Shown: positions 628 through 19,214 of the stretch, piece after piece
Layout: each line of letters opens with the position of its first letter
How positions within the stretch are numbered: position 1 is the first letter of the stretch
Virus record (IMG/VR): IMGVR_UViG_3300010262_000228
DNA length: 20,000 nt
Source: an uncultured virus (IMG/VR IMGVR_UViG_3300010262_000228)
Lineage: Duplodnaviria; Heunggongvirae; Uroviricota; Caudoviricetes
Reading direction: 5' to 3' (one strand)
Notes under the pieces: generated by a model
What the model was told of the DNA's origin: nothing
Databases searched by the model: none
Seen by the model: only the letters and a program-made list of their open reading frames with translations
Translations under genes and position numbers: made by a program

Positions 628-933
628 TTAGTCTGGGCTTGTATGTGATTCGAGCAAATGAAGTGCATCTTCCCTTGCGCGGTCGTCTGCATTGCGAGCT
701 GCAACCACTAGGGCTCGTTCATAAGAGGACAGCGTTCCGTCCTCTACTTGCTCCTTGCCAACTAAATAATCAATAGTGACGCCAAACAAATCAGACAGTC
801 TGATGAGGACATCAATCGAAGGCTGTCTGGTTTCTCTCTCATATCTGCTGTACACCATAACACTACAGCCAATGGCATCTGCCACCTGCTGTTGTGTAAG
901 GCTACGTTTTGTGCGTAAGTCTTTCAAATTCAC
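628..933 (-). CDS. XRE/Cro-CI family HTH repressor (ImmR-like)
   Basis: LKDLRTKRSLTQQQVADAIG..YSRYERETRQPS..LSDLFGVTIDYLVG. Start moved to GTG 933, which has GGAGG 8 nt upstream. Confidence 0.9.
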   Translation of the reverse strand: MNLKDLRTKRSLTQQQVADAIGCSVMVYSRYERETRQPSIDVLIRLSDLFGVTIDYLVGKEQVEDGTLSSYERALVVAARNADDRAREDALHLLESHTSPD

Positions 934-967
934 GGCATACACCTCCCGTGTAACTGACTTGATTATA

Positions 968-1058
968 CTACCGGTGCGGTTATATGAGTATGTCCGTTTT
1001 GGTTAATTACTTGTTGACGAATAACCAAATTGGCTATATAATATCTCCGTAATGGTTA
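968..1058. promoter_or_regulatory. Four operator-like boxes (CC-N5-GGYTA; idealised TAACC-N5-GGTTA)
   Basis: 968 CTACCGGTGCGGTTA; 991 TGTCCGTTTTGGTTA; 1022 TAACCAAATTGGCTA; 1044 TCTCCGTAATGGTTA. Confidence 0.65.
1014..1042 (+). promoter_or_regulatory. sigmaA promoter for the ATPase-recombinase operon
   Basis: TTGACG (1014-1019), 17 nt spacer, TATAAT (1037-1042). Confidence 0.8.
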
Positions 1059-1082
1059 TTATGTTGCGAGGAGGTGTTATCC

Positions 1083-2078
1083 GTGAACGAGGCTTTATGC
1101 GTGTACTATTCATCAGTCGAAAGCAAAAAAGTCGACTGGTTATGGTATCCGTATATTCCTTACGGAAAGCTAACCTTGCTGCAAGGTGATCCCGGCGAAG
1201 GAAAATCAACCTTCATTATCAATGTAGCCGCTCGATTAACTAATGGTGAGGCCATGCCAGGGACTTCGGATGCGGGTACCCCCCAAACGGTGATTTACCA
1301 ATGTGCGGAGGATAATGTCGCAGATACCATCAAACCTCGATTAGTTGCTGCGGGAGCTGACTGCTCCCGAATTGCATTTATTGCAGATGAAAGCGAACAG
1401 CTTACATTAGAAGATCAGCGCATCGAGCAGGCCATAAAGGAAACGAAAGCTCGACTGCTTATCATAGATCCATTACAGGCTTTTATGGCACAAGACGGTG
1501 ATATGCAAAATGCCGTTCGTGTGCGCACAGTCCTTCGCAAGCTGGCAAATGTGGCCGATAGAAATAATTGTGCCGTTGTTATGATTGGTCACATGAATAA
1601 AGGTGTCGGTGGAAAGAACCTGTATAGAAGTTTGGGGAGCATTGACATAGCAGCAATCTCAAGAAGCGTCCTTATGATTGCAAGGGATAATGCAGATCCA
1701 AATCTGCGGTATATGTTTCCGGTTAAAAGCAGTCTTGCCGCTGAAGGAAGCCCGATTGCCTTCCGTATGGATGAAAAACGTGGCTTTACATGGATTGGTA
1801 AATGTGCCATGGGAGATTCTGTCAAGAATGAGGATGCAAACATATCCAAATTGGATCTCGCGCGTAGCTTTATTGTCGATATCCTCGCAGATGGTCCCGC
1901 TCCCGCAAAAGACATTATTGGCGACTTAGCAAAATTGAGTATTGGTCAAAGAACCGTTGAGAGCGCTAAGAAAGCACTTGGCGTCAAGTCACATCGCATT
2001 GGTTCTGCGTGGTTCTGGTCTTTGGACGGGAACTATGAACAAAGAACGGGAGGTCATTCAGTATGCGATATCGAGTAG
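1083..2078 (+). CDS. AAA_25 / RepA-like (RecA-fold) ATPase, putative replication helicase
   Basis: WLWYPYIPYGKLTLLQGDPGEGKST (Walker A), LLIIDP (Walker B), GHMNK..GSIDI..SRS, and a C-terminal wHTH-like RTVESAKKALGV..W.W. GTG 1083 follows GGAGG. Confidence 0.85.
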   Translation: MNEALCVYYSSVESKKVDWLWYPYIPYGKLTLLQGDPGEGKSTFIINVAARLTNGEAMPGTSDAGTPQTVIYQCAEDNVADTIKPRLVAAGADCSRIAFIADESEQLTLEDQRIEQAIKETKARLLIIDPLQAFMAQDGDMQNAVRVRTVLRKLANVADRNNCAVVMIGHMNKGVGGKNLYRSLGSIDIAAISRSVLMIARDNADPNLRYMFPVKSSLAAEGSPIAFRMDEKRGFTWIGKCAMGDSVKNEDANISKLDLARSFIVDILADGPAPAKDIIGDLAKLSIGQRTVESAKKALGVKSHRIGSAWFWSLDGNYEQRTGGHSVCDIE

Positions 2079-2569
2079 CTGGATATGTAAAGTTGGCAAA
2101 GCTCTGGGAGCGTAGCCGAGATACTGCCATCCCGTATCACCATCAATACTACGAGAAGAAGTTTGAAGGACACCCTGATTTCGAGCTTGTGGATGTTTAT
2201 ATCGATATCACCGGACGGAAGGAAATCAAGAACCGGCCCGAAATGTTGCGCCTGATCAATGACTGCAGAGAAGGGAAAATCGACTGCATCGCAACACAGA
2301 CGAGAGCGTATCTTGCAGCCAACACCGGAGAGTTCTGCAGTTTGTTGCGGTACCTCTTTGACATGGCGAATCCTATTCACATCATCACCGAAGATGAGCA
2401 ATACAACATCAACACAATCGCGAACGATGACCATCAGAGAGAAGAACTCTATCGAATGGCAAGAAGTTTCACAGAGATAAATCCCGACGAATACCGAAAA
2501 TGGCTGGAGGATGTATTCCTCGGCATCGATAAATACGTACCGCAGGAGAGTGGAACCCATGGATACTGA
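2063..2569 (+). CDS. Resolvase-fold (serine recombinase N-domain) protein, apparently catalytically dead
   Basis: RVAGYVKLA, LVDVYID.TG...NRPEMLRLINDCREGKIDCI match the resolvase domain. The YxRxS nucleophile and D/SRxxR motifs are replaced by YVKLA and AYLAAN. Confidence 0.75.
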   Translation: MRYRVAGYVKLAKLWERSRDTAIPYHHQYYEKKFEGHPDFELVDVYIDITGRKEIKNRPEMLRLINDCREGKIDCIATQTRAYLAANTGEFCSLLRYLFDMANPIHIITEDEQYNINTIANDDHQREELYRMARSFTEINPDEYRKWLEDVFLGIDKYVPQESGTHGY

Positions 2570-4541
2570 TAAGCTCAAAGAAATGCCGGAAGCAACAGCA
2601 AGCGGTGAGGCAGAAGCTGTTGCCTCTGCCCCAGAAAAGCCTGTCAGCACATGGCGGCCACAGGATGCAGACCGTGAAATCATCAAGGCAAATATTCGCC
2701 GTAGAGTTTGGTCATCCAATGCGTCCCCAAAGGCACAATTCATCCCGGCCAAGCCTTTGCCCACCGTTCAGGATGAGGGGCAAAAGCGAGTGGCTGTGTA
2801 TGCCCGAGTCAGTACGAAGAGCACTGAACAGGTCTCATCGATTGAGAACCAGACTCGATACTATACCGAAAAGATTGAAAAGACCCCCAATTGGGATATG
2901 CAGGAAATCTATAGTGATGAGGGCATTTCCGGCGTCTCCATCAAAAAGCGTCCCGCATTCCTTCGCATGATCGATGATGCCAGCCATAAACGGATGGATC
3001 TTATTCTCTGTGCCAGTGTCTCGAGATTTGCTCGTAATATGTCCGAATGCTTGGAGCAGATCCAGATACTGAGGACGAAAAATCCCTCACATCCCGTCGG
3101 TGTTTACTTCGAAACCGAGAACATCTACACCCTCGACCCCAGAAGCTCCGACCAGCTCCAGATCCACGCAATGCTGGCTGACTGGGAATCCGCCAATAAG
3201 AGCAGACGCATGATTCTCTCCTATGACCAGAGAATCAGCACCGGACAGTATCCAGTTTCTGACTTGCTGGGGTATCGGCATACCGAAGACGGTCAGTTGA
3301 TCATCCAGGAGGATGAGGCGACTACAGTGCGCTTTATCTTCCTTGCCTACCTTGTAGGTTACTCTCTGGGCGAGATTGCCGATATCCTGACCGAAAAGGC
3401 AAGGCCGACCCTGAAGGGCAATACCGTATGGAATGCCGCCATGGTAAAGAACATCATGCAGAATGAGCGGCGTTGGGGACACCTCGAAGCGCGAAAGAGC
3501 ATCGTCATTGACCACAAGTCCAAGAAGGTGACCAAGAATAACAACACTCGTGACTCCGCCTACGATCCTGAACATCACGAGGGAATCGTCACCTACGAAA
3601 TCGCCAAGGCCGTACATATGGTAGCCGCAAGCGGCAGATCGTTAAAAGGTGGCATCCACGATTTGCACGTTATCGAAGAGGGTGCGCTGAAAGGATTTAT
3701 CTGCGTCTGCCCTGCATGGAGCGGTATGAACAGTCAGGCTCTGCAGGATATCTGTACAAGCGTATATTCCGATGATGAGTTCGAAGACCTGCAGTATAAA
3801 GCAAGTATCCTGCGTGGTGAAGCACATGGCAAAGTGGATTCTATGACTTTCTACAGCTATGAGGCACCTCCGGGCGTTTACTTCATGAACAGCAGGACAC
3901 CGTCTCTAACGCTTTCAAAGAAAAACATCAAACTCAATGCAGCTTGTAAAGCCCGTTTCACCAAGTACACCCATGTAGAAATCCTTTATCATCCTGTGCT
4001 TCAGGTAATTGCCCTGCGCGGCTGCGCGCCTGATGCTCCGAATGCAGTTCCTCTCGATGTTGATAAGGCGAATACTCCGATTCCAACCAATTCCTTCACC
4101 GAAGCTATCTTCGAAAAGATGGAATGGGTTCCTCGCTATCGTTTCCGTTTCCGTGGGATCGGTCGGGAGCGTGGCAACAGCCAAATCATGCTGTTCTTCC
4201 TTGACGATCCGCAGATCCTTCTCCCTAAAAAGGATCGGGAGCGCATAGAAGCAGAGAAAGAAGAATGTGAAAGCAATGCACGCTATATTCCCTATAAAGT
4301 GCAGGAAGAAGCTGTAGTGATGGAAGATAATCCCTTCCAAGTGGCCTATCCCGAAAAATGGGGTGGCCACCATATCGGAATTAGCTATGGCCTGTGTGAA
4401 CAAAGAAATTTGCTGCTCAATACCTTAACCGAACGCGATCTCCGTATCGAAGGCACTGCCGTACTGAATCCCCTGATTGGCATTTTGCCGGACCGACTTG
4501 AGGTTGAAGATGAAATCGAGCAGTTGCTTCTGAAAATGTAA
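2559..4541 (+). CDS. Large serine recombinase (resolvase + recombinase domains + atypical C-terminal domain)
   Basis: RVAVYARVST, YSDEGISG..KRPAFLRMI, SVSRFARN, ES.NKS, LLGY..EATTVRFIF, HEGIV. ATG 2559 follows AGGAGA. 660 aa. Confidence 0.93.
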   Translation: MDTDKLKEMPEATASGEAEAVASAPEKPVSTWRPQDADREIIKANIRRRVWSSNASPKAQFIPAKPLPTVQDEGQKRVAVYARVSTKSTEQVSSIENQTRYYTEKIEKTPNWDMQEIYSDEGISGVSIKKRPAFLRMIDDASHKRMDLILCASVSRFARNMSECLEQIQILRTKNPSHPVGVYFETENIYTLDPRSSDQLQIHAMLADWESANKSRRMILSYDQRISTGQYPVSDLLGYRHTEDGQLIIQEDEATTVRFIFLAYLVGYSLGEIADILTEKARPTLKGNTVWNAAMVKNIMQNERRWGHLEARKSIVIDHKSKKVTKNNNTRDSAYDPEHHEGIVTYEIAKAVHMVAASGRSLKGGIHDLHVIEEGALKGFICVCPAWSGMNSQALQDICTSVYSDDEFEDLQYKASILRGEAHGKVDSMTFYSYEAPPGVYFMNSRTPSLTLSKKNIKLNAACKARFTKYTHVEILYHPVLQVIALRGCAPDAPNAVPLDVDKANTPIPTNSFTEAIFEKMEWVPRYRFRFRGIGRERGNSQIMLFFLDDPQILLPKKDRERIEAEKEECESNARYIPYKVQEEAVVMEDNPFQVAYPEKWGGHHIGISYGLCEQRNLLLNTLTERDLRIEGTAVLNPLIGILPDRLEVEDEIEQLLLKM

Positions 4542-4551
4542 TGGAGGGCGA

Positions 4552-5259
4552 ATGATGAGCACAACCGAACAGAAAAGCCAGGGTTATACCGCGAAAGAAC
4601 AGGAACTTATCCGTCAGCTCGTTCAGGCCCGGTTAGAGCAAAAGAGCGAGTTGGGTTATGAGAGCTTGGAAAGCTATGAATTGCCTCCCCGCACACAATT
4701 CTCTATGCTCAACAAACCGGCAGTCAGTATCAAGCATAGAGAAATGACCTTCAATATGGCGTGTATTCGTCTGTTTGAAGGTGTACAATTCATCCTCCCC
4801 TTCACCAGCCGCACGAAGAAGCGTTTGGCCGTGGCCACCTGTAACGAAGAAGAGGCTGAATCTGTCCAATGGGCACGCATCAATAACAAAGGGGCTTGGG
4901 CAAACAGAACTATCGTGTCTGAAGAGTATCTGCATAAGATCTTTGAATTCATGCACTGGGACCCGAACTGCCGCTACAAGGTAATGGGGCGCGTTACGAA
5001 CTCGGATCGTGGTCTCATCCTCGTCTTTGATTTGGACGAAGCGATTCTCTTTACCACACCCGAAGAATATGTGGACAGAAGAACTGGCGAGGTCAAGAAA
5101 CGCACGATCAAGTATTATCCTGACGAATACAGGGAGCGAATCGGAAAGTCCTACAAGGATTATCTCGAGAAATATCAGATGAGTATGTTCGAGCAGCTCA
5201 GTGATTATGGCAGCGAGGATGAACAGCAAGCCCCCGCACCTAGTTTCAGTGGGTATTAA
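4552..5259 (+). CDS. Recombinase-associated protein homologous to the LSR C-terminal domain
   Basis: GGAGG RBS, 10 nt after the LSR stop. Motifs P..S..FNMAC..F, IFEFMHWDP..RY...G, FDLDEA and YPDEY..IGKSY align with the LSR C-terminus. Confidence 0.8.
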   Translation: MMSTTEQKSQGYTAKEQELIRQLVQARLEQKSELGYESLESYELPPRTQFSMLNKPAVSIKHREMTFNMACIRLFEGVQFILPFTSRTKKRLAVATCNEEEAESVQWARINNKGAWANRTIVSEEYLHKIFEFMHWDPNCRYKVMGRVTNSDRGLILVFDLDEAILFTTPEEYVDRRTGEVKKRTIKYYPDEYRERIGKSYKDYLEKYQMSMFEQLSDYGSEDEQQAPAPSFSGY

Positions 5260-5269
5260 GGAGGGCAGT

Positions 5270-5650
5270 ATGAGTAACGGAGAAAAGAGCGCAACCGCAA
5301 AGACTCTGAGTCTTATTCTCACTATCAAGAGTTTAAGAAACAAAATATATGTAGGAAAAGACATCGTTCGAGTTCTCGGTGCCCCTAGATATGTATGCGT
5401 AAAAATCAATGAGGATATGTCCTCTCTTGCCATTCAGCCCGGTGATGAGAAGGAATATATGTCATTTAAGGTCCCAGAAAAACTATTCCTCTCTCACAAA
5501 TGCGAATTCACCATAAACAGCAAGAGTTTTGTGAATGATCTGCTCAAAGCAAACAACCTAGACCCTACAAAGAATCACCCGATTACTGGAGTGTATTCCG
5601 AAAAGACAAACTCCGTCATTTTCAAAATCAATCCCGATACGGAGAACTGA
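5270..5650 (+). CDS. Small recombinase-operon hypothetical protein (beta-rich, possibly the same fold)
   Basis: AAGGAGG RBS then ATG 5270. NKIYVGKDIVRVLGAPRYVCVKIN..LAIQPG..INSKSFV. 126 aa. Confidence 0.75.
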   Translation: MSNGEKSATAKTLSLILTIKSLRNKIYVGKDIVRVLGAPRYVCVKINEDMSSLAIQPGDEKEYMSFKVPEKLFLSHKCEFTINSKSFVNDLLKANNLDPTKNHPITGVYSEKTNSVIFKINPDTEN

Positions 5651-5660
5651 CATCGTAATG

Positions 5661-5692
5661 AAACAAAAGCACCCCGCCGAGCGACGAGGTGC
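5661..5692 (-). terminator. Intrinsic terminator of the 5704-6429 gene
   Basis: Minus strand GCACCUCGUCG-CU-CGGCGGGGUGC followed by UUUUGUUU. The stem pairs fully with G-U pairs on the minus strand. Confidence 0.75.
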
Positions 5693-5703
5693 GGTCAATG
5701 TAT

Positions 5704-6429
5704 TTACTTGCGTTTCGCTTCCAGATCGGATTCCTTGATGGTTCTACTGTTGGCGTACCATGCGGAGCGTTTGTTGCTCCATCTACCGCCACGTGCCTCA
5801 ATCAGTTCCTTGTGTGCGTCAGTATCCCCAGACAGCCAGATAACCGGAGAATCGGTCTGTGCTCCCTTGATGGTAGTAGTCACACCCTCCAGGTCGGCAA
5901 AGCGTGTTGCAATCATTTCTGCAATGCTGACTTCTGACGGATGTTCAGATTGATGCAGCTCTACAGGCGCATCATCGCTCAAAGCATCGAAAAGTGCATT
6001 CGCGTAGACAAGCAGTGTCGCCCGTTCCTTCCGTGAGAGATTGCTCGGAAACGGTTCACGAAGTTGTTCGGCTAGACGGCGGGCGCGCCGAATATATTTC
6101 GGTGTGCGGGGAGATTGGTAGCACAAGGATGCCTTTGCACCACGGAACCCCAAACGGTTCAACTCTTCTATCGTCTCCTGGTCTGGCTGTTGATCAAAAA
6201 CAAAGCAGATGCGATTCGTCTGTTCATTTGTCTGATACTGCCCACCAGGAAACCAACCCACTTCGTGCTCCATGCGTTCAATCCGTTGTTGCTGACGAAT
6301 GCGCTTTTTCGTTTCAGAGATAGCACTATTGTTTCTTGGAGAGGCAGCTTCTAACTGAGAAAGCCTTGCTGTCAGTTTTTCCAATGCCTGGGGATCATCA
6401 CTTCGGATGGGTTTTGACTGTGTGGCCAT
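5704..6429 (-). CDS. Phage/plasmid 'polyvalent'-type protein (DUF3560-associated C-terminal region + DUF5710-like GxRW..W domain)
   Basis: IRSDDPQALEKL..L, NNSAI..KKRI, NRICFVFDQQPD..LGFR; C-terminal IWLSGDTDAHKELIEARGGRWSNKRSAWY. Has its own promoter and terminator. Confidence 0.65.
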   Translation of the reverse strand: MATQSKPIRSDDPQALEKLTARLSQLEAASPRNNSAISETKKRIRQQQRIERMEHEVGWFPGGQYQTNEQTNRICFVFDQQPDQETIEELNRLGFRGAKASLCYQSPRTPKYIRRARRLAEQLREPFPSNLSRKERATLLVYANALFDALSDDAPVELHQSEHPSEVSIAEMIATRFADLEGVTTTIKGAQTDSPVIWLSGDTDAHKELIEARGGRWSNKRSAWYANSRTIKESDLEAKRK

Positions 6430-6465
6430 GGCCTCTCACCTGCCTTCCTTATCGGGGTCACAGAA

Positions 6466-6494
6466 AGTATATCACACGCCCCACCGAACGGCAA
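6466..6494 (-). promoter_or_regulatory. sigmaA promoter for the 5704-6429 gene
   Basis: Minus strand TTGCCG, 17 nt spacer, TATACT, with an extended -10 TG. Confidence 0.7.
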
Positions 6495-6518
6495 GACAAG
6501 CAAACTTCGCAACAGAAA

Positions 6519-6536
6519 GTGGTCGATTTCGACCAC
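6519..6536. repeat. Perfect inverted repeat GTGGTCGA-TT-TCGACCAC, candidate operator
   Basis: 8-bp arms just upstream of the phosphoesterase RBS. Confidence 0.55.
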
Positions 6537-6557
6537 CTTAAACCAGCAGGAGGAAAG

Positions 6558-7274
6558 ATGATTTACTATACAGGAGATATACATGGCTCCCATCATGAGC
6601 TAACCGCATTCTGCCGTGAATACAAGCTGACCGAGAAAGACACGGTCGTTCTTCTCGGTGATGTGGGTGCCAATTACTATCAAGACAAGAGCGACAGGGA
6701 TCTGAAGCGGGCTTTGAACCGATTGAAGCCCACGATCCTCTGTATTCACGGAAACCACGAAATGCGCCCGGCCACGCTCCCTTCCTATCTGATGAAGGAG
6801 TGGAACGGCGGCATGGTTTGGTATGAGGAAAAGTATCCCAATCTGCTCTTCGCAAAAGACGGAGAAATCTTTACGCTGGAAGGACTTCGCCACTTTGTTA
6901 TCGGCGGTGCCTACAGCGTTGATAAGTATTACCGACTCAGTCGAAACTATGGCTGGTGGCCAGATGAGCAGCCGTCCGAGGAAATCAAAGCCTATGCGAC
7001 CAAGCAGCTTGCCATTCATAAAGTGGACATTATCCTGTCCCACACCTGCCCCTATAAGTATGAGCCGACCGAGGTGTTTCTTCCCTTCATTGACCAGAGC
7101 ACTGTGGATGACAGCACCGAGCGTTGGCTCGACAAGATCGAAGATGCCATTGATTATAAAGCGTGGTTCTGTGGACACTGGCATGTGGACAAGCGCATCG
7201 ACAAAATGCACTTTCTCTTCCACTCCTTTGAATCTTCGGAACAATTCATGAGGGACAGCAACGATGAACAGTAA
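6558..7274 (+). CDS. Calcineurin-like metallophosphoesterase (phage/ICE type)
   Basis: GDIHG, LGDVG, GNHE, GGAYSVDK, SHTCP, GHWH. AGGAGG RBS then ATG 6558. Confidence 0.92.
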   Translation: MIYYTGDIHGSHHELTAFCREYKLTEKDTVVLLGDVGANYYQDKSDRDLKRALNRLKPTILCIHGNHEMRPATLPSYLMKEWNGGMVWYEEKYPNLLFAKDGEIFTLEGLRHFVIGGAYSVDKYYRLSRNYGWWPDEQPSEEIKAYATKQLAIHKVDIILSHTCPYKYEPTEVFLPFIDQSTVDDSTERWLDKIEDAIDYKAWFCGHWHVDKRIDKMHFLFHSFESSEQFMRDSNDEQ

Positions 7275-7301
7275 GCGGTATGGCTGATGGAGGTACGGAA
7301 T

Positions 7302-7643
7302 ATGGGAAGCAACGATGCTTTGTTAAACGAAATCAAGGACACCATAAATGGTATCAGGGCACTTATGGACAGAGCCTATCAGCAATATTCCTCGTTGGTC
7401 GATGCTGTTATAAATGATGAAATTACAGACATCAACCAGATCGAACGGATCATGGACGGTCTGGTTGACCTTGGCGACGATGTGCGTTTCATCGAGATAT
7501 ATAGAAAGCTTTGCCGCCATGTCTATCATCGGTACCCGCAGTTGGTGGGTGAGCATGTAATGATGTTTCGGGCGCAGTTCGAGTCCAACGAAGATACCGC
7601 TCAGAGCGATATTGCAGGACCAAAAACCACTCTCGAAGAATGA
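7302..7643 (+). CDS. Conserved helical hypothetical protein (paralog 1)
   Basis: GGAGG RBS. IERIMDGLVDL..FIEIYRKLCRHVY..YP. Confidence 0.8.
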   Translation: MGSNDALLNEIKDTINGIRALMDRAYQQYSSLVDAVINDEITDINQIERIMDGLVDLGDDVRFIEIYRKLCRHVYHRYPQLVGEHVMMFRAQFESNEDTAQSDIAGPKTTLEE

Positions 7644-8787: not shown

Positions 8788-9564
8788 ATGATTTATGTTA
8801 TGTCCGATATCCACGGACAGAAACGTCGATTTGATTCTGTCATGGAGCAGATCAACCTGCAACCTGAAGATACCCTTTACATCCTCGGCGATGTTATCGA
8901 CCGAAATCCCGATGGCATCAGAATCTTACGCCAGATCATGGCGATGCCCAATGCAAAAATGGTCTTGGGAAATCATGAATATATGATGCTGAACGCGCTA
9001 TACTACCCCGCACCCGGAGATGACCCAGAGTGGATGGAATACTATCGAGAGCGCAAGTTGTCGCTCTGGTATAACAACGGTGGTCTTGTAACACACAGGT
9101 ATTTGAAGCGAATCCCCAAAATAGTCCGGCAGGAAATCTTCGAATACTTGGATAAGCTGCCCGTCAATATCGACCTGACAGTAAATGACAGACAGTACAT
9201 CTTGACCCACGCAGCTCCCGTTGAGCTGTACCGTCGCTTCGGTCACAAATATAGGGACGAAAGAGAGTTCGCCGTCTGGCGCCGCTTTGATACCTTCATG
9301 GAACTGGAGGGCAAGACTGTGGTGTTTGGTCATACACCAACCTACAATTATAACTTTGAAAGCCCCATGGAAGTCTGGAATGCCGGAAGCTGGATTGGGA
9401 TCGACTGTGGTTGTATTTATCCCGAGGAAGGAGATCTCTGGAGTGGAGCCAATGGCCGTCTGGCCTGCTTACGGTTGGATGACATGATGGTCTTCTACTC
9501 TGAAGAAAACTATCCCGAGGAGGATAATGAAGATGAACAAGAAGCTGAAAGCACCTCAAGTTGA
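8788..9564 (+). CDS. PPP-family Ser/Thr phosphatase-like metallophosphoesterase
   Basis: SDIHG, GDVIDR, GNHE, W..NGG, THA, FGHT, IDCGC. AAGGAGGT RBS. Confidence 0.92.
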   Translation: MIYVMSDIHGQKRRFDSVMEQINLQPEDTLYILGDVIDRNPDGIRILRQIMAMPNAKMVLGNHEYMMLNALYYPAPGDDPEWMEYYRERKLSLWYNNGGLVTHRYLKRIPKIVRQEIFEYLDKLPVNIDLTVNDRQYILTHAAPVELYRRFGHKYRDEREFAVWRRFDTFMELEGKTVVFGHTPTYNYNFESPMEVWNAGSWIGIDCGCIYPEEGDLWSGANGRLACLRLDDMMVFYSEENYPEEDNEDEQEAESTSS

Positions 9565-10786
9565 TCGTTATCTTTGGTGGCTTGGACAAATGGATTACCA
9601 GAAATATGACCATGCCTCCAAATATGATGCAAGATCCTACGAGCTTCTGGACGAACTGTTCGAACTGCTCAAGAATATAAAGACTCTTGAAGGGTCTAGT
9701 GCCTGGAAATTCTGGATTCGTGCAGAACGTGGCACCATTGAAGACTACGGCGACTATGAAGAGATGTTCGATTGTGGTGAGGTCGAAAACCACGAAGATT
9801 ATCTAAACCGATGGAAAACCGAGTATCCCGATGAAACTGAGTGGTATGAGTTTCAGGCCCTCGATGAGAAGACCATCGGGTACAAAGCCATCTTTGTACG
9901 TCACAAGTTTGTTATTGAGTTGGATTCCAGAAAACCAATGGTCGGCTATGAGTATGATATCTCCGAGTTTTCGCAATGGCTTGTAGATGCAGTAAAAGAG
10001 GTCATATCGGAGCTAAAAGAGGGTACCTACAACGAGCGGTTGTCGCGTGAGCTTCCTGATGAACAGCGAACGGGGACAGTTCTGCGGAAATACCAATGGG
10101 AAGTCAGGCCGAAAATCAGGGAGGAAATCTTCGGGGATCTTTCTGAGGCCGACCTTGCTGAATTCCTATCCAATGCAGAAGAAAAACTGTCCGACAACTC
10201 TCGGCTGCTCACTCAGATGACGGCCAATGACTTCTATCGGTACTGCGCTATGGGGTATGCAGCAAACGGATACGATTGCTGCGACAAACCGCCCAAGGAA
10301 CAATACCTCAAGCACGCTGATGGGCGAGATGATGGGCTTCGGAACATAGATCCTGACTCGCCGGAAGCCTTTTCTGACTGGTACCACAATCATATTGGTG
10401 GTGGACATCCGTGGGAGGTCTGTCGCGGCGGAAACTCAACGCACGTATCTCTCTATGTACACCCAAAAGACAATGGTTGGTACCTTTCCCTTGCAGGCTC
10501 TGCATGGACCAGATGCCAGGAAACAATGAAATTCTTCCTTGCGCTACATCGTGCAGGTCTACCAGTGACCGTGTATGAAGCACCTGTGCTGAAGGCCAGG
10601 GTGTTGGGTGAAGAAAAGGTCGGAATCGTCCCTCTGGGTGTCTTTCCGGCGTATTGCCACAGCTACTTCCCCGGCGAAACAGTAATCGACTTTATGAATC
10701 TGCCCGGCGATGAAGATGACAGGAACCGGCTGGTGGAGCATTGCATCTGGCAGCCCCTAGAATATGCAGAGTTAAGCGAGGGATGA
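9533..10786 (+). CDS. Conserved hypothetical protein (417 aa) with HADGRDDGL and GGHPWEV.RGGNSTH motifs
   Basis: Long ORF overlapping the phosphatase stop, with a GGAGG RBS. Confidence 0.8.
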   Translation: MNKKLKAPQVDRYLWWLGQMDYQKYDHASKYDARSYELLDELFELLKNIKTLEGSSAWKFWIRAERGTIEDYGDYEEMFDCGEVENHEDYLNRWKTEYPDETEWYEFQALDEKTIGYKAIFVRHKFVIELDSRKPMVGYEYDISEFSQWLVDAVKEVISELKEGTYNERLSRELPDEQRTGTVLRKYQWEVRPKIREEIFGDLSEADLAEFLSNAEEKLSDNSRLLTQMTANDFYRYCAMGYAANGYDCCDKPPKEQYLKHADGRDDGLRNIDPDSPEAFSDWYHNHIGGGHPWEVCRGGNSTHVSLYVHPKDNGWYLSLAGSAWTRCQETMKFFLALHRAGLPVTVYEAPVLKARVLGEEKVGIVPLGVFPAYCHSYFPGETVIDFMNLPGDEDDRNRLVEHCIWQPLEYAELSEG

Positions 10787-10788
10787 AG

Positions 10789-11037
10789 ATGGTCATTTCC
10801 TACAACAAGCTCTGGAAGCTCCTGATTGATAAGAAAATGAGCAAAGCAGATTTAAGAAAAGCAGCGGGATTGGCTCCCAATACGATGACTCGTCTGCGAA
10901 GGGATCAGGAGGTCACCATTTCGGTGATATACAAAATCTGCACAGCAGTTGGTGCAGACATTGGAGATGTCATGGAATTTCTGCCCGAACCAGAGGAGAC
11001 CCGTGACACTATGATTTCGGCGGCAAATAAAATTTAA
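10789..11037 (+). CDS. Cro/C1-type HTH (HTH_26) regulator
   Basis: ISYNKLWKLLIDKKMSK.DL..V....KIC....IGDVME. Confidence 0.9.
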   Translation: MVISYNKLWKLLIDKKMSKADLRKAAGLAPNTMTRLRRDQEVTISVIYKICTAVGADIGDVMEFLPEPEETRDTMISAANKI

Positions 11038-11106
11038 TATACCTGTAGAGTAGAAAATGGAGTTCAATGCTATATGGGGAGAGCCTTGATTTGACAAAGT
11101 ATCTGT

Positions 11107-11189
11107 CTGTTGCCGCGCAGACCAAGGGGCGTGATAACAGCGATGGCGAGGGACATTTTTCCCTCGCCATTCACGGGAAGGGTGAGGGA
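11107..11189 (+). promoter_or_regulatory. Structured leader with mutually exclusive hairpins over the RBS
   Basis: 11-bp perfect stem at 11143-11170. Its 3' arm can instead pair with the RBS GAAGGGTGAGGGA. A further stem lies at 11107-11140. Confidence 0.45.
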
Positions 11190-11867
11190 ATGAAAATCAT
11201 AGATTATGAGCTCAAGGGTAATGTGGTGCGCTTTTACTTGGGAAAAGCAACGGCAAAAGATTACCACGGAGATGATTGGGACGATCCACTTACCGAAATT
11301 AATGGCAACCTTGTCTATAGCGAATATATCACCGGAACTGCCGAAATTGCGTTCCCATTCGATGCTCTTGTTTTGGACCCATGCGCCGGAGAGCGCAGCT
11401 ACAATTGCACATATTCCAAAAATGACATGAAAAACAGAACTGTTCCCTGCGTGATTGTAATTCCACCGGAGATTGCGAAAAACAGCAGCAGGGACAATTT
11501 TACATACTGGGCTGGGTACAAGGATGCCCTTCGCTTCTATTTTGAAGATCCTATGGAACCCTCACCATTACTTATAAGCTATAGCTTTGAACCCCTGCAG
11601 AAAGGGTTTGTTCAGCAGCACGATGTGTACCAAGCGCTGGCTGGATCGCAATCTGCACAGGAGGGCAATTCGGCGAGGCCGGTGCCTCTGTGGGAAAAGG
11701 AAAACCTCACAATAGAAGAAGCGGCTTCCCTCTTTGGTGTAGGTCAGAACAGAATCCGTGCGCTGACAGACAAGCGCAACTGCGATTTCGTTCTATTCGT
11801 TGGAAATCGACGCCTGATCAAGAGAAAGAAATTTGCCAAGTATTTGGAAACTGCCTTCTCAATCTGA
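11190..11867 (+). CDS. Phage-like hypothetical domain fused to a C-terminal Tn916-type excisionase
   Basis: N-terminal KGNVVRFYLG..GDDWDD. C-terminal VPLWEKENLTIEEAASLFGVGQNRIR..VLFVGNRRLIKRKKF is the Tn916-Xis pattern. Confidence 0.8.
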   Translation: MKIIDYELKGNVVRFYLGKATAKDYHGDDWDDPLTEINGNLVYSEYITGTAEIAFPFDALVLDPCAGERSYNCTYSKNDMKNRTVPCVIVIPPEIAKNSSRDNFTYWAGYKDALRFYFEDPMEPSPLLISYSFEPLQKGFVQQHDVYQALAGSQSAQEGNSARPVPLWEKENLTIEEAASLFGVGQNRIRALTDKRNCDFVLFVGNRRLIKRKKFAKYLETAFSI

Positions 11868-11883
11868 TATGGAGGGATCTTCA

Positions 11884-12129
11884 ATGCTGGATTACTCGAC
11901 ACTGCCCTCGGTTACAGAGGATGAATTCGTAAAAGACCCCGAAACCTATTTTGAAAGAGTTCACCAAGGGGAAAGCCCCCTTTTGATTATCAACAACGAT
12001 GGCCGAAAGTACCTCCTGTTTGATTGGGAAGATTATTGGAAACGCTTCGGTATGCTTTACCCTGACGGAGAGAAAGAGCGGGTCGAAGAAGCCTGCAGAA
12101 AGGCGGCACTTAATGCTCCCCAAGAGTAA
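11884..12129 (+). CDS. Phd/YefM-like antitoxin (orphan)
   Basis: VTEDEFVKDPETYFERVHQGESPLLI..G..YLL..EDY resembles the Phd N-terminal fold. GGAGG RBS. Confidence 0.55.
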   Translation: MLDYSTLPSVTEDEFVKDPETYFERVHQGESPLLIINNDGRKYLLFDWEDYWKRFGMLYPDGEKERVEEACRKAALNAPQE

Positions 12130-12283
12130 GTTTGACATAGAGCTTCCCCAGTCTATCGTCGATTCCTACGCTAGACATCTGGTGTCCGAAATACGCAAGT
12201 ATTACGCCAAAGAAGAGAATCAGCAGGAGTTGGAAGAACACTTAGAAAAGGAAGAAAAGATAGATGATTCTATTTACCAGTGA
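12113..12283 (+). CDS. Small ICE-type hypothetical protein (56 aa)
   Basis: GAAAGG RBS then ATG 12113. ARHLVSEIRKYYAKEENQQELEE. Overlaps both neighbours. Confidence 0.6.
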   Translation: MLPKSKFDIELPQSIVDSYARHLVSEIRKYYAKEENQQELEEHLEKEEKIDDSIYQ

Positions 12284-13058
12284 CCTGCACCTTGGTCATA
12301 AGAATATCCTCAAACTGTGTAATCGTCCGTTTTCCTCAATTGAAGAAATGGATGCGACACTGATCGAGAACTGGAACAAGAAGGTGCATAAGAACGATCA
12401 GGTATATATCCTTGGGGATCTGATGTATCGAAATGAAAAGCCGCCCGAGGAATACCTGCGGCAGCTCAACGGCAAGAAGCACCTCATTACCGGAAATCAC
12501 GATAGAGCCTGGGTCAAGATGTGCGATACTTCTCAGTATTTTAAAAGTGTAAACAGACTGGACTACATTTCGGATAGGAAGCGTCAAATGACGCTGTGCC
12601 ACTTCCCAATGATGTCCTGGCCCCACATGCCCAGGAGCTACATGGTCTTTGGCCACATTCATGGCACTACCGATGCTGATTACTGGCTGCTCATCGCACG
12701 AAACGAAAAGATGCTCAATGCTGGTGTCGATATCAACGGCTATGCACCCGTCACTTTCGATGAGATGGTCGAAAACAACGCAAAACATAAAGCTGCATAT
12801 CTTGAGATGACCACTCAATACACCTTAGAAATGCGGCTTGAAGATATGCTCTGTGATTTGGAGCGTCGCATTGGACTGTTCGAGGAGGCTTGTGCGGCAG
12901 ATATGGCGAAGTGTAAGGAAGCAATTGCGGAGAAAGAATACGAAGGCTTCAAGAGTTACCTCTTGGGTTACCTTGCAAGCAATCAGGCCAGAGATGCGGA
13001 GCTGCAGTTGCTCCGCACGCAGTACGATGCCCTGCTTAGTCTAACCCAGAGCCATTGA
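12264..13058 (+). CDS. Calcineurin-like phosphoesterase (AQ1575-like) with C-terminal helical extension
   Basis: SDLHLGHKNI, RPF..EEMD..WN, LGD, GNHD, CHFP, GHIH, NAGVD. Confidence 0.9.
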   Translation: MILFTSDLHLGHKNILKLCNRPFSSIEEMDATLIENWNKKVHKNDQVYILGDLMYRNEKPPEEYLRQLNGKKHLITGNHDRAWVKMCDTSQYFKSVNRLDYISDRKRQMTLCHFPMMSWPHMPRSYMVFGHIHGTTDADYWLLIARNEKMLNAGVDINGYAPVTFDEMVENNAKHKAAYLEMTTQYTLEMRLEDMLCDLERRIGLFEEACAADMAKCKEAIAEKEYEGFKSYLLGYLASNQARDAELQLLRTQYDALLSLTQSH

Positions 13059-16431: not shown

Positions 16432-17289
16432 ATGGCTGATAGAAGAGCAAGAAATGCGGATATCTTCCGAGATACAGAAAAGCATTACAAGACAAACACT
16501 GTGCTGAAGCAAGCAATCCAAGCATCAATCAAAGCGCAGCGATTTATATCTATTAAAGATGCTGTTGGACAGCCCATCAAGACAGAATCCAAGAATGCAA
16601 AAGTTTTAGTAAGCGGCAAGCGTTCACTCGAAGCCGCCGAGTTCTATGCAAAACAAGGCAAAAAAGTATGTGTGCTGAACTTTGCTTCAGCTACAAACCC
16701 TGGTGGCGGTGTAGTCAACGGCTCATCTGCACAGGAAGAAAGCATCTGCCGCTGCACGACACTCTATCCCTGTCTAAACACAGAACCCATGTGGCAAGCC
16801 TTTTATTCACCACATAGAAAATCGGGAAATCCGCTCTATAACGATGATTGCATTTATACACCTGATGTTTATGTGTTCAAGAGTGATACAAATTTCCCCG
16901 AGCTGTTGCCTTGTGACGATTGGTGGAGTGTAAACATCTTGACTTGTGCGGCTCCCAACCTTCGTGATCGCCCAAGCAATGCAATGAATCCATTCGCTGG
17001 TAATACTGCCGCAAAGATAACTCCTGCCGAATTGAAGCAATTGCTGAATTCACGAATCAGGAGAATATTTGAACTTGCGGTAGCCAACGGAAATGAGGTG
17101 TTGATCCTTGGAGCATTCGGTTGTGGTGCATTTAGAAATCCTCCTAAAATTGTAGCGGAGGTATTTTACGATGTTATGCAAGAGTATCTTTGCTATTTTG
17201 ATGTAATCGAATATGCTGTTTACCACACCGAACGAGAAGCTGCCAACTACGAAGCCTTTAAGAACAGACTCGGATACTCTCAAAGGTAG
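16432..17289 (+). CDS. TIGR02452 (DUF2263 macrodomain) bacterial-type poly(ADP-ribose) glycohydrolase
   Basis: VLNFASATNPGGG-X6-QEESICR catalytic loop, IYTPDV, TCAAP, LILGAFGCGAFRNPP. Confidence 0.93.
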   Translation: MADRRARNADIFRDTEKHYKTNTVLKQAIQASIKAQRFISIKDAVGQPIKTESKNAKVLVSGKRSLEAAEFYAKQGKKVCVLNFASATNPGGGVVNGSSAQEESICRCTTLYPCLNTEPMWQAFYSPHRKSGNPLYNDDCIYTPDVYVFKSDTNFPELLPCDDWWSVNILTCAAPNLRDRPSNAMNPFAGNTAAKITPAELKQLLNSRIRRIFELAVANGNEVLILGAFGCGAFRNPPKIVAEVFYDVMQEYLCYFDVIEYAVYHTEREAANYEAFKNRLGYSQR

Positions 17290-17728: not shown

Positions 17729-19119
17729 TTAAAGAATATTTTCCGGTTTTTGTTTGCGGCCACTCCATCCCTGCATCTGCGCCCATGCTCTTAGATTGGA
17801 AGAATCCTCAGTTTTAGCAGCATGAATGGTGTAAAGAAAATTACAGTAACCCGAAACTCCACCAACATCATCCATAACATTTAATCCATCCAGCATAACA
17901 CATAGAGGTTTCTCTTCCGATGCAACTTCGGGGTGCGCTATGGCTTCTTCGCTGTTTTCAACATAAGTAATTCGAACTTCCCATCCATCTCCATAGTCAT
18001 ATAGATAGAGCAACTCGTTTGTCACCGGAACAGCCTCGATTAAGTGTCTAATATTTTCGGGGGACGTTGTTTTTTTCCCAAATACATGACATCTGCAATT
18101 GTAAGACGCTCAAGCAGGGACTGAAGATTTCCTCCAAAGTCCAGGCTTCGCTCCAGCTCTGCTATGGTTGCTTCTTTGGGAGAAATCTGTTTCTCAATCA
18201 TGTTGCCGCTCGGGTTCTTTAGGAAAGTCTCAAAGGGAACCCTTACATCGACTCGTGGATAATTGGTATAAAAGTTCAGCAGTTCTTTTTGGCACTCGAG
18301 ATAAAGTTCGCTATATCCTTCGTAGGTGTATGGACCACAATACTTCTTACGAAGCCATGTGCGAAAACTCTTTGTGCCGTCGTAGTCATCATCCCAATAC
18401 AAATCTTCCATATCATCTGTAGGCATTCTGAAATAGATGCCGCAAAGCTCACCCCAACGCTGGAACATTCCACCAGTTAACTTATGGTATGTTTCTTCCG
18501 GTAGTTCAAAATGGTGCAGATGAGAATTCTGCCAACCAAACGCTCTTTGAACGGCAAAATGGAGAGAATGCAATGTTATCGAGCTTGGTACAAGAATGTC
18601 TCGGGAAATGGACTCTTGTACCTTCCCAAACTCTGCCAGCATCCCCAGTTCGTCATCGACAACTTTGCTGTCGACTAATTCCATGTGCAGATGAACTGTT
18701 TTTCTCATGGCGACATCTTTTGAATCATACGCATGCATCGAGGACACCTCCTTGTTATTGTGGGCATGGCTGTTGGGATATGCAGCAAGAACCTGATGAG
18801 CCAACGCACTTTGATTTCTACTACGATAAGATTTACAACGCTCTGCTGAATAGGTGCTTGTTTCTTTGCCGTATGCGCCCTTTCTATACGGTGCGTAGGC
18901 TTCCACATTTTTAACAGTAACACGAAGCTGGGCGGCAATTTCCTCGACCGAAAGCCCCTTGTCCAACAGAGCACAAACAGCGGTACTTCGTTTGCTACTC
19001 CACAAGCCAGCGGTGATTAGTGTTCGGCGAACCTTGACTACAGAAACTCCAAGAATGGCTGCAGTTTCTTTTACAGACTTAGTCACCTTAAAACTGTCAA
19101 CAATACGCTGATCAATCAT
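17729..19119 (-). pseudogene. HTH + pRiA4b ORF3 / IS1096 passenger TnpR-like protein split by a -1 frameshift
   Basis: 18040-19119 carries the HTH (KVRRTLITAG..AYAPYRKG.Y) and RDILVP..LHSLH..QRAFGWQNSHLHHF. 17729-18025 carries YLYDYGDGW..PLC..DG..MDDVGG..GY. The frames join at GGGAAAAAAA (18070-18079). Confidence 0.8.
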
Positions 19120-19214
19120 CTCGACCACCTACTATCGATTAAATTTTGGATATAATATCACACCGAATGAATGGTGTCAACCTAACCTTTTGCGAGAGGA
19201 AAGTGCATAATGAT

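Follow-up and report, generated by a model that had tools for sequence, protein, structure and literature searches.

A large serine recombinase with an alternative C-terminal module that recurs as free-standing proteins in a conserved cassette of gut Clostridia

Can a large serine recombinase (LSR) dispense with the zinc ribbon and coiled coil of canonical serine integrases, and what takes their place? The question is raised by a 20,000-nucleotide stretch of DNA from an uncultured virus of the Caudoviricetes (IMG/VR record IMGVR_UViG_3300010262_000228), the whole of which is referred to here as the window. It encodes an LSR of 660 aa at 2559..4541 on the plus strand (hereafter the cassette LSR), followed by two small open reading frames (ORFs), ORF 4552 and ORF 5270. 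An earlier note made from the letters of this DNA had proposed that the LSR lacks the usual zinc ribbon and coiled coil and carries instead a domain repeated in the genes downstream. In canonical LSRs, which are major genome-engineering tools, the coiled coil is inserted in the zinc ribbon, and control of direction is understood only through that module and the recombination directionality factors (RDFs). We found that the cassette LSR keeps an intact catalytic motif and recombinase domain and that a different module of ~260 residues replaces the zinc ribbon and coiled coil. These last ~260 residues are homologous to nearly the whole of ORF 4552, at 20-23% identity. At the level of sequence this finding is solid; the mechanism proposed below for the module is tentative.

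A different module after the recombinase domain

The longest frame of the LSR gene spans 2511-4541 and encodes 676 aa; an alignment of relatives places the family start at M17, giving the 660-aa form at 2559-4541, to which residue numbers refer unless the longer form is indicated. Pfam matched the 676-aa ORF to Resolvase (residues 94-245 of that form) and Recombinase (267-369) and to nothing further at E ≤ 0.1, and matches in PHROGs and NCBIfam were restricted to N-terminal parts. The catalytic domain (residues 76-220; 2784..3218, plus strand) matched Pfam Resolvase at E = 3.9e-25 and, in the model, the catalytic domains of solved resolvases and integrases at Z 13-16. Its key motifs are conserved: across 40 family members, R83 and S85 of YxRVS are kept in at least 90%, and S155-R156-F157-A158-R159, the SRFAR motif, is invariant. 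The recombinase domain (residues 221-365; 3219..3653, plus strand) follows helix E and was recognised both by Pfam (PF07508, E = 3.1e-14) and by a structural match to the SPbeta integrase. When the model of the LSR predicted by AlphaFold2 (AF2) was compared with solved integrases, those of SPbeta, Bxb1 and PhiC31 superposed on residues ~69-362 only. Residues 6..300 of the SPbeta integrase (9y66_A) aligned with residues 69..361 of the model at Z 12.8 (root-mean-square deviation (rmsd) 3.9, 234 aligned residues), and 9iu2_A aligned with residues 76..359 at Z 12.0 (rmsd 9.4, 225 aligned residues).

Beyond this point the likeness to canonical integrases ends, in agreement with the earlier note on both the zinc ribbon and the coiled coil. 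The zinc ribbon PF13408 had no match in the LSR at E ≤ 0.1 and appeared among the precomputed domains of none of 67 relatives found through the C-terminal region. No Cys downstream of C151 is invariant in 40 aligned family sequences, which excludes a four-Cys zinc site for the family. As a positive control, canonical LSRs encoded near related cassettes did match Zn_ribbon_recom (E = 5e-12 in locus L046; E = 5e-7 and 2e-12 in phage L001), and the cassette LSR of the same phage, unlike its neighbours, did not. The AF2 model, a prediction with a mean predicted local distance difference test score (pLDDT) of 71.6, contained no coiled-coil helical hairpin, and its helices past residue 361 are all of 10-14 residues (392-401, 405-418, 557-567, 610-621 and 646-659). 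Thus, of the four defining features of LSRs, two are present, the zinc ribbon and the coiled coil being the two that are missing. The protein would work like a serine recombinase and is not a canonical serine integrase.

The module is instead shared with the neighbouring genes. BLASTP aligned residues 435-566 of the 676-aa form with residues 27-163 of ORF 4552 at E = 1e-8 (31 of 137 positions identical). Comparison by hhalign of the LSR family (40 sequences) with the ORF 4552 family (42 sequences) gave a probability of 98.2% (E = 3.4e-14) over 209 columns, covering LSR residues 401-629 and ORF 4552 residues 10-222. Deeper alignments, for which the window and related loci supplied 46, 61 and 62 sequences, raised this to 99.45% (E = 5e-22, 201 columns). 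The resemblance that the earlier note had aligned by eye is therefore genuine and also wider than was described. It adds a helix and a YE-x-PP..F stretch before the beta core, which by themselves align at E = 8.6e-11, and a YP-E/D-x-W/Y..IG-x-SY motif 3' of the core. The same note had seen a weaker version of the pattern in ORF 5270. This was not significant by BLASTP (E = 0.35 against ORF 4552 and 4.8 against the LSR) or by hhalign with shallow alignments (E = 0.01 and 0.1, respectively), and was confirmed with the deeper ones, at 96.7% (E = 3.2e-10, 110 columns) against ORF 4552 and 96.2% (E = 2.4e-9, 98 columns) against the LSR. In addition, a hidden Markov model (HMM) of the ORF 4552 family matched 12 of 62 ORF 5270-like ORFs at E ≤ 1e-3, the best at 4e-8. 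ORF 5270 corresponds to the ~110-residue core alone, that is, to residues 55-166 of ORF 4552 or 470-569 of the 676-aa LSR.

In the LSR, the recombinase domain is followed by an acidic linker with two short AF2 helices (residues 366-425; 3654..3833, plus strand; isoelectric point (pI) 4.6), the second of which has its homologue in the N-terminal helix of ORF 4552, the hhalign columns beginning at LSR residue 401. There follow a conserved arm at residues 426-446 (3834..3896, plus strand; motif YEAPPGVYF), in which Y434 and F442 are invariant, and a basic, beta-rich core (residues 447-556; 3897..4226, plus strand; pI 9.5) with AF2 strands between residues 449 and 554. An acidic tail (4227..4541, plus strand) carries the YPEKW..GISY motif in common with ORF 4552; hhalign extends to residue 629 within it, and G607, D627, N637, G641, P644 and E652 are invariant in the 40-sequence alignment. 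ORF 4552 (4552..5259, plus strand; 235 aa) has helix, arm, core and a YPDEY..IGKSY motif as a free-standing protein. Its arm, YELPPRTQF, occupies residues 42-50, with Y42, P45, P46, Q49, F50, S51 and M52 in one of the best conserved stretches of the family, and its core spans residues 55-168 (pI 8.6). ORF 5270 (5270..5650, plus strand; 126 aa) is a free-standing core only (pI 9.1). The flanks of the cores are acidic, and the basic cores themselves would fit DNA binding, of which charge alone is no proof.

Two further regions of the LSR may be recorded here. The conserved C-terminal strand and helix (4389-4541 of the window, residues ~611-660; invariant D627, N637, G641, P644 and E652; pLDDT 80-91) have no counterpart in ORF 4552 and could be a further interaction element or an autoinhibitory one. 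At the other end, an N-terminal extension (2670-2780 of the window, residues ~38-74) contains a conserved W..R.E...P.KP.P stretch, which in one subfamily of these LSRs resembles the arm motif (Y.VPPQTIF.PAKP), although the likeness falls short of significance. A second arm-like motif at the N terminus (PKAQF..AKPLP) was considered and rejected, having an i-E of 0.012 in one phage-collection record, HMM matches in 0 of 46 cassette LSRs and hhalign E values of 0.23 and 0.029.

Neither ORF 4552 nor ORF 5270 matched any family in Pfam, PHROGs or NCBIfam. With the Pfam threshold relaxed to E ≤ 5, 42 relatives of ORF 4552 gave scattered single matches, no family occurring in more than three members and neither MraZ nor AbrB occurring at all. 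Among PDB sequences, the ORF 4552 profile found nothing below E = 0.37, the value of a protoglobin that we discarded, and the ESM Atlas contained only unnamed clusters for the domain. The AF2 model of ORF 4552 (mean pLDDT 70.5; 75-92 in the core) is a beta-rich domain with two helices. Foldseek found nothing in the PDB at E ≤ 0.001 for this model, and rows for PCNA/beta-clamp proteins (best E = 0.026, template-modelling (TM) score about 0.1) were treated as noise. In a structural search of 48,161 chains, MraZ came first (1n0e_A; Z 4.7, rmsd 3.3, 85 aligned residues, model residues 55..165), followed by weak matches to B3 domains (6j9b_D, Z 3.2; 4i1k_B, Z 2.9; 1yel, Z 2.8; 1wid, Z 2.6). No chain had a Z of 5 or more, and this level is below what unrelated models usually reach.

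The swapped-hairpin barrels of MraZ and AbrB and the pseudobarrels of plant B3 proteins are basic, DNA-binding beta domains that the core weakly resembles. However, hhalign of the three families (LSR, ORF 4552 and ORF 5270) against 19 MraZ sequences gave probabilities of only 0.15%, 0.36% and 1.6%, so that homology with MraZ is not supported by the profiles. Given the weak structural scores and the failed profile comparison, the possible AbrB/MraZ-like character suggested in the earlier note is not established and remains a weak lead. Uncharacterised phage proteins of 110-130 aa in BFVD share the core fold at target-normalised TM scores of 0.5-0.63; on the evidence of these models, the core may be a widespread small phage domain. 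Examples are A6MAH0, A0A7U0GBQ4 and A0A142F1T0 (113-129 aa; from Lactococcus, Klebsiella and Bacillus phages), with target-normalised TM scores of 0.56-0.63.

Another C-terminal variation among LSRs is DUF4368 (PF14287), which had no match in the C-terminal region of the cassette LSR, the Pfam scan giving only Resolvase and Recombinase. DUF4368 marks a multi-targeting clade of TndX/TnpX-like LSRs and is likewise an unusual C-terminal domain of unknown function (PMC10083194). This clade is the nearest described variation, from which the cassette LSR differs in lacking DUF4368, and the passages on it in PMC10083194 make no mention of free-standing paralogues of the domain.

A cassette conserved across gut Clostridia

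In the window, the genes from 1074 to 5650 form a single, tightly packed, co-directional operon, with neighbouring genes overlapping or separated by gaps of 11 nucleotides. An XRE-type helix-turn-helix regulator (628..942, minus strand; Pfam HTH_3, E = 4e-17) is divergent to it. The first operon gene encodes an AAA_25 (RecA/DnaB/KaiC-like) ATPase (1074..2078, plus strand; Pfam AAA_25, E = 1.2e-26), the end of which overlaps the start, at 2063, of a small resolvase-like gene. ORF 4552 begins 11 nucleotides past the stop of the LSR gene, and ORF 5270, which is nested in a longer frame (5201-5650), begins 11 nucleotides past the stop of ORF 4552.

The small resolvase-like gene, ORF 2063 (2063..2569, plus strand; 168 aa), matched Pfam Resolvase at E = 1.1e-5, the match being limited to profile positions 31-124. 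Where the LSR has Arg-Val-Ser, ORF 2063 has Lys-Leu-Ala: its GYVKLAKLWE corresponds to VYARVSTKSTEQ of the LSR, and the arginines of SRxxR are also lost. Lys and Ala replace the Arg and the Ser nucleophile in 49 of 50 such small resolvase-like sequences, the fiftieth being truncated. With its nucleophile changed from Ser to Ala, ORF 2063 is a conserved and catalytically dead paralogue of the resolvase catalytic domain. Its presence suggests that the logic of the free-standing C-terminal copies may be followed at the N-terminal end of the recombinase as well.

To assess how widely this arrangement occurs, we searched with a profile of ORF 4552 and found 1312 cluster representatives at E ≤ 1e-3, 710 of them at E ≤ 1e-10. 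Contigs from one genome per species contained 65 loci with an ORF 4552 relative; synteny was counted over 67 loci (these 65, the window and phage locus L001), with denominators restricted to loci that have room for the gene in question. In 54 of 57 loci, the gene immediately upstream of the ORF 4552 relative encodes an LSR with the same module. The three exceptions (L049, L051 and L055) have Mob_Pre or unrelated genes in this place, two of them with a 5'-truncated ORF 4552-like gene, and look like truncated or rearranged remnants. An ORF 5270-like gene follows in 59 of 61 loci; the copy in L001 was found at a weaker E value, and L015 is rearranged. The dead resolvase copy is present in 49 of 55 loci and missing from L001, L049, L050, L051, L054 and L055. 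The order dead copy, recombinase, ORF 4552-like gene, ORF 5270-like gene is found in most of the 67 loci, which belong to gut Clostridia, and in Heliusvirales phages. Both mobile elements and prophages of gut Clostridia carry the cassette in conserved form. Genes for an XRE regulator (HTH_3) and an AAA_25 ATPase precede it in the window and in all three other loci examined (L046, L023 and L017), indicating a conserved module of at least six genes.

Both free-standing genes are intact in ~60 loci at 50-75% identity, with 47 invariant columns in ORF 4552 and 22 in ORF 5270. As ORF 4552 is only 20-23% identical to the tail of the cassette LSR, the duplication must be old and its copies retained. 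One could read ORF 4552 and ORF 5270 as the decaying remains of a duplicated recombinase gene, in view of their homology to part of the gene upstream, but these observations make that reading hardly tenable.

The wider context varies among loci. A Heliusvirales gut phage (L001, PV036436.1; coordinates 4438-7442 and 9328-12178) carries the trio of LSR, ORF 4552-like and ORF 5270-like genes after a repressor, at 35%, 27% and 29% identity, and has two canonical zinc-ribbon LSRs adjoining its endolysin. The cassette LSR is therefore probably not the only integrase of this phage. Locus L046 has a canonical LSR at its left end and L023 an actin-like partition gene, and an HMM scan found an additional serine recombinase gene ~2 kb upstream in nine loci, including L046. 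DNA nearly identical to the window was present in 19 sequencing runs, which come from 10 studies that sampled animal guts, and fourteen of the runs may be sources of it. Megablast of the whole window against plasmids and phages gave no match. A 5.4-kb record, MT838295.1, was considered as a minimal circular element and rejected, being a linear scaffold fragment without terminal overlap. Upstream of the window, contig C5 of G001 adds 3.4 kb of further mobile-element genes, among which there was no integrase and no tRNA.

What the module and its free-standing copies may do

The earlier note had proposed that hetero-oligomerisation through the beta-rich domain replaces coiled-coil control of synapsis and directionality. 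We predicted the complex of LSR residues 400-660 with ORF 4552 and obtained an interaction prediction score from aligned errors (ipSAE) of 0.66 (0.65, 0.68 and 0.66 in individual runs), against 0.00 for the best of three controls. Contacts agreed by at least 92% between runs, and the pLDDT of the partner was at least 62. Of solved complexes, 116 of 157 reach the pass mark used for such predictions, and of mismatched pairs 2 of 215; these counts apply here only approximately, as the prediction used alignments of our own. The predicted interface places LSR residues 428-444 (the arm), 532-550 and 597-621 on ORF 4552 residues 82-106, 121-133 and 151-152. The main contact is that of the LSR arm on the ORF 4552 core, and the two beta cores show no symmetric pairing. 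Both arms have a pLDDT below 50 in the monomer models and are among the most conserved stretches of their proteins, a pattern to be expected where a segment folds upon binding a partner. In light of the controls, association of the cassette LSR with ORF 4552 is supported in silico, as the note had envisaged, albeit mainly by an arm on a core rather than by pairing of the beta domains themselves.

We consider the best explanation, with a probability of roughly 45%, to be that the module replaces the zinc ribbon and coiled coil by means of arm-core contacts and that the free-standing paralogues cap or redirect the recombinase. The module would take over both jobs: the basic core would recognise the outer DNA site, and the arm of one chain would dock on the core of another, producing a network of subunit contacts that stands in for the coiled coil. 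ORF 4552, with arm and core, could both give and receive an arm, and ORF 5270, with a core only, could receive one. The free-standing copies would then cap or redirect the contacts of the recombinase in the manner of RDFs, which act through the coiled coil in canonical integrases, and would thereby set the timing, and perhaps the direction, of recombination by the LSR. We infer, in other words, that arm-core contact may control synapsis or directionality. The basic cores may bind DNA too, in which case competition for sites would be an equally simple mechanism.

Known systems offer partial parallels. The integrases of PhiC31, Bxb1, SPbeta (SprA) and A118/LI have, like the cassette LSR, a Resolvase domain with the Ser nucleophile motif and then a recombinase domain; they continue with a zinc ribbon and coiled coil, whereas the cassette LSR continues with an unrelated ~260-residue module that has no conserved Cys. 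RDFs such as Bxb1 gp47, PhiC31 gp3 and SPbeta SprB are small proteins of the same element that are thought to bind the C-terminal part of the integrase and redirect its subunit contacts. ORF 4552 is likewise predicted to bind the C-terminal module; we know of no RDF that is paralogous to the integrase domain it binds. The CcrA and CcrB proteins of staphylococcal cassette chromosome (SCC) elements are adjacent, paralogous serine recombinases that act together, both full-length and active, whereas the partners in the cassette are single-domain copies, one of them catalytically dead by its sequence; NCBIfam models of CcrA/CcrB gave partial matches only. In Tn5 Inh and IS911 OrfA, a free copy of the enzyme's own DNA-binding or multimerisation part regulates the full-length enzyme. 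These truncated, transposase-derived regulators arise from the gene of the enzyme itself, by alternative starts or by frameshifting, and the cassette copies are separate, old and diverged genes. In the literature searched, supplements aside, we came across neither an LSR carrying this module nor RDF-like proteins paralogous to an integrase domain, and the dead-copy gene is not described there either.

Several observations weigh against the arm-core explanation. The DNA binding that it invokes is deduced from charge and from a weak resemblance to MraZ and B3 (Z 4.7 and 2.6-3.2). The predicted contact is one-way, the arm of ORF 4552 lying outside the interface, and the complex score expresses the confidence of a model, in which paralogues may score well through a shared mode of self-association. 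Repeats that could mark recombination sites in the window were restricted to short pairs of low identity. Neither attachment (att) sites nor rearrangements were found among the repeats of the window or in the reads and contigs of four sequencing runs. The contigs of these runs are collinear with the window, and no well-supported contig joint fell within 1000-6000; the joints seen had sides of 21-44 letters and below 95% likeness, and collinearity says nothing on the absence of rearrangement. Finally, the LSR lies inside the operon, away from the edge of the element, and canonical LSRs, possible integrases, adjoin the cassette in L001 and L046.

The idea can be extended to a multi-part serine recombination machine composed of the active LSR, the dead catalytic copy and two free copies of the module, possibly driven by the AAA_25 ATPase, in which exchange of the arm onto a neighbour's core would be the switch for synapsis and direction and would replace the coiled coil. 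We hold this extended version to be rather doubtful. If true, 'directionality factors' would here be paralogues of the enzyme's own domains, and many prophages and islands of gut Clostridia would share the arrangement, the widespread Heliusvirales among them.

Among the alternatives, regulation or architecture at the level of DNA fares best, although we regard it as unlikely. ORF 4552 and ORF 5270 would bind the same motifs as the LSR core, or neighbouring ones, and would block sites or scaffold accessory sites without touching the LSR. Versions of transposases that only bind DNA, or the accessory sites of resolvases, regulate those enzymes in this way. The basic pI of all three cores (9.5, 8.6 and 9.1) would be in keeping with such a role, as would the reduction of ORF 5270 to a core without arm or tail and the DNA-binding domain that canonical LSRs hold at the same position. 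The best structural matches are also DNA-binding barrels (MraZ, Z 4.7; B3, Z 2.6-3.2), but they are below the level usual for chance. In addition, the window showed no repeated DNA motifs, and the arm, the most conserved element outside the core, is predicted to bind protein. This explanation and the arm-core explanation are compatible with each other.

It is also conceivable, but quite improbable, that the dead copy, ORF 4552, ORF 5270 and perhaps the AAA_25 ATPase are obligate subunits of one recombinase or transposase and that the LSR alone is inactive. The near-invariant gene order, with genes overlapping or 11 nucleotides apart, would be expected of such an enzyme and agrees with the AAA_25 gene directly upstream in the window and in three of three loci and with the predicted LSR-ORF 4552 complex. 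However, phage L001 of the Heliusvirales carries the trio but no dead copy, and five more loci with room for this gene also lack it.

Finally, ORF 4552 and ORF 5270 could be transcription factors or other proteins of the element that use a common phage fold and play no part in recombination, the LSR having merely acquired the same domain. The small uncharacterised phage proteins that share the fold and the 1312 cluster representatives found by the ORF 4552 profile would suit this idea. In contrast, in 54 of 57 loci an ORF 4552-like gene comes immediately after an LSR with the same module, the three exceptional loci resemble truncated or rearranged remnants, and the homology takes in the motifs of helix, arm and tail besides the fold; we therefore consider it very unlikely.

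If the arm-core explanation is correct, a widespread natural clade of LSRs would have solved site recognition and directionality independently, in a second way, with paralogues of its own domains as likely partners. It would also name three unannotated families, the ORF 4552-like proteins, the ORF 5270-like proteins and the dead resolvase copies, and it would point to a conserved, unexplained module in very prevalent phages of the human and animal gut.

Fused cluster representatives and other genes of the window

Among the cluster representatives, a series of 'fusions' (P0227-P0357) join an ORF 4552-like C-terminal part to truncated, unrelated proteins, including a Tn916-type integrase, an ATP-grasp protein, a methylase, a UDP-glucose dehydrogenase and a Y-family polymerase. 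Others join the ORF 4552-like part to fragments of AAA_25, the dead copy or the LSR, and certain ORF 4552 variants are found joined to several partners at an almost identical junction. We considered an att site inside ORF 4552 and rejected it: the breakpoints are scattered over profile positions 36-182, and many of the partners are genes of the cassette, so that chimeric or deleted contigs are more likely.

Beyond the cassette, the window carries cargo genes at 6336-7274, 8788-9564, 12264-13058, 16432-17289 and 11067-11867, comprising three calcineurin-like metallophosphoesterases, a microbial PARG-like protein and a 266-aa protein with a Tn916-Xis-like domain at its end. The sole minus-strand gene after the cassette (5704-6429) had no Pfam match; in PHROGs it matched 'primase' families over their C-terminal part (phrog_19458, E = 1.8e-10). 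PRiA4b ORF-3-like domains occur at 17729-19128 (minus strand) and in another locus, L095, at 206-937. The domain in the window is apparently split over the adjacent ORFs 18040-19128 and 17729-18025; a run-derived contig has one extra T behind 18069, which may reflect a frameshift or a sequencing difference.

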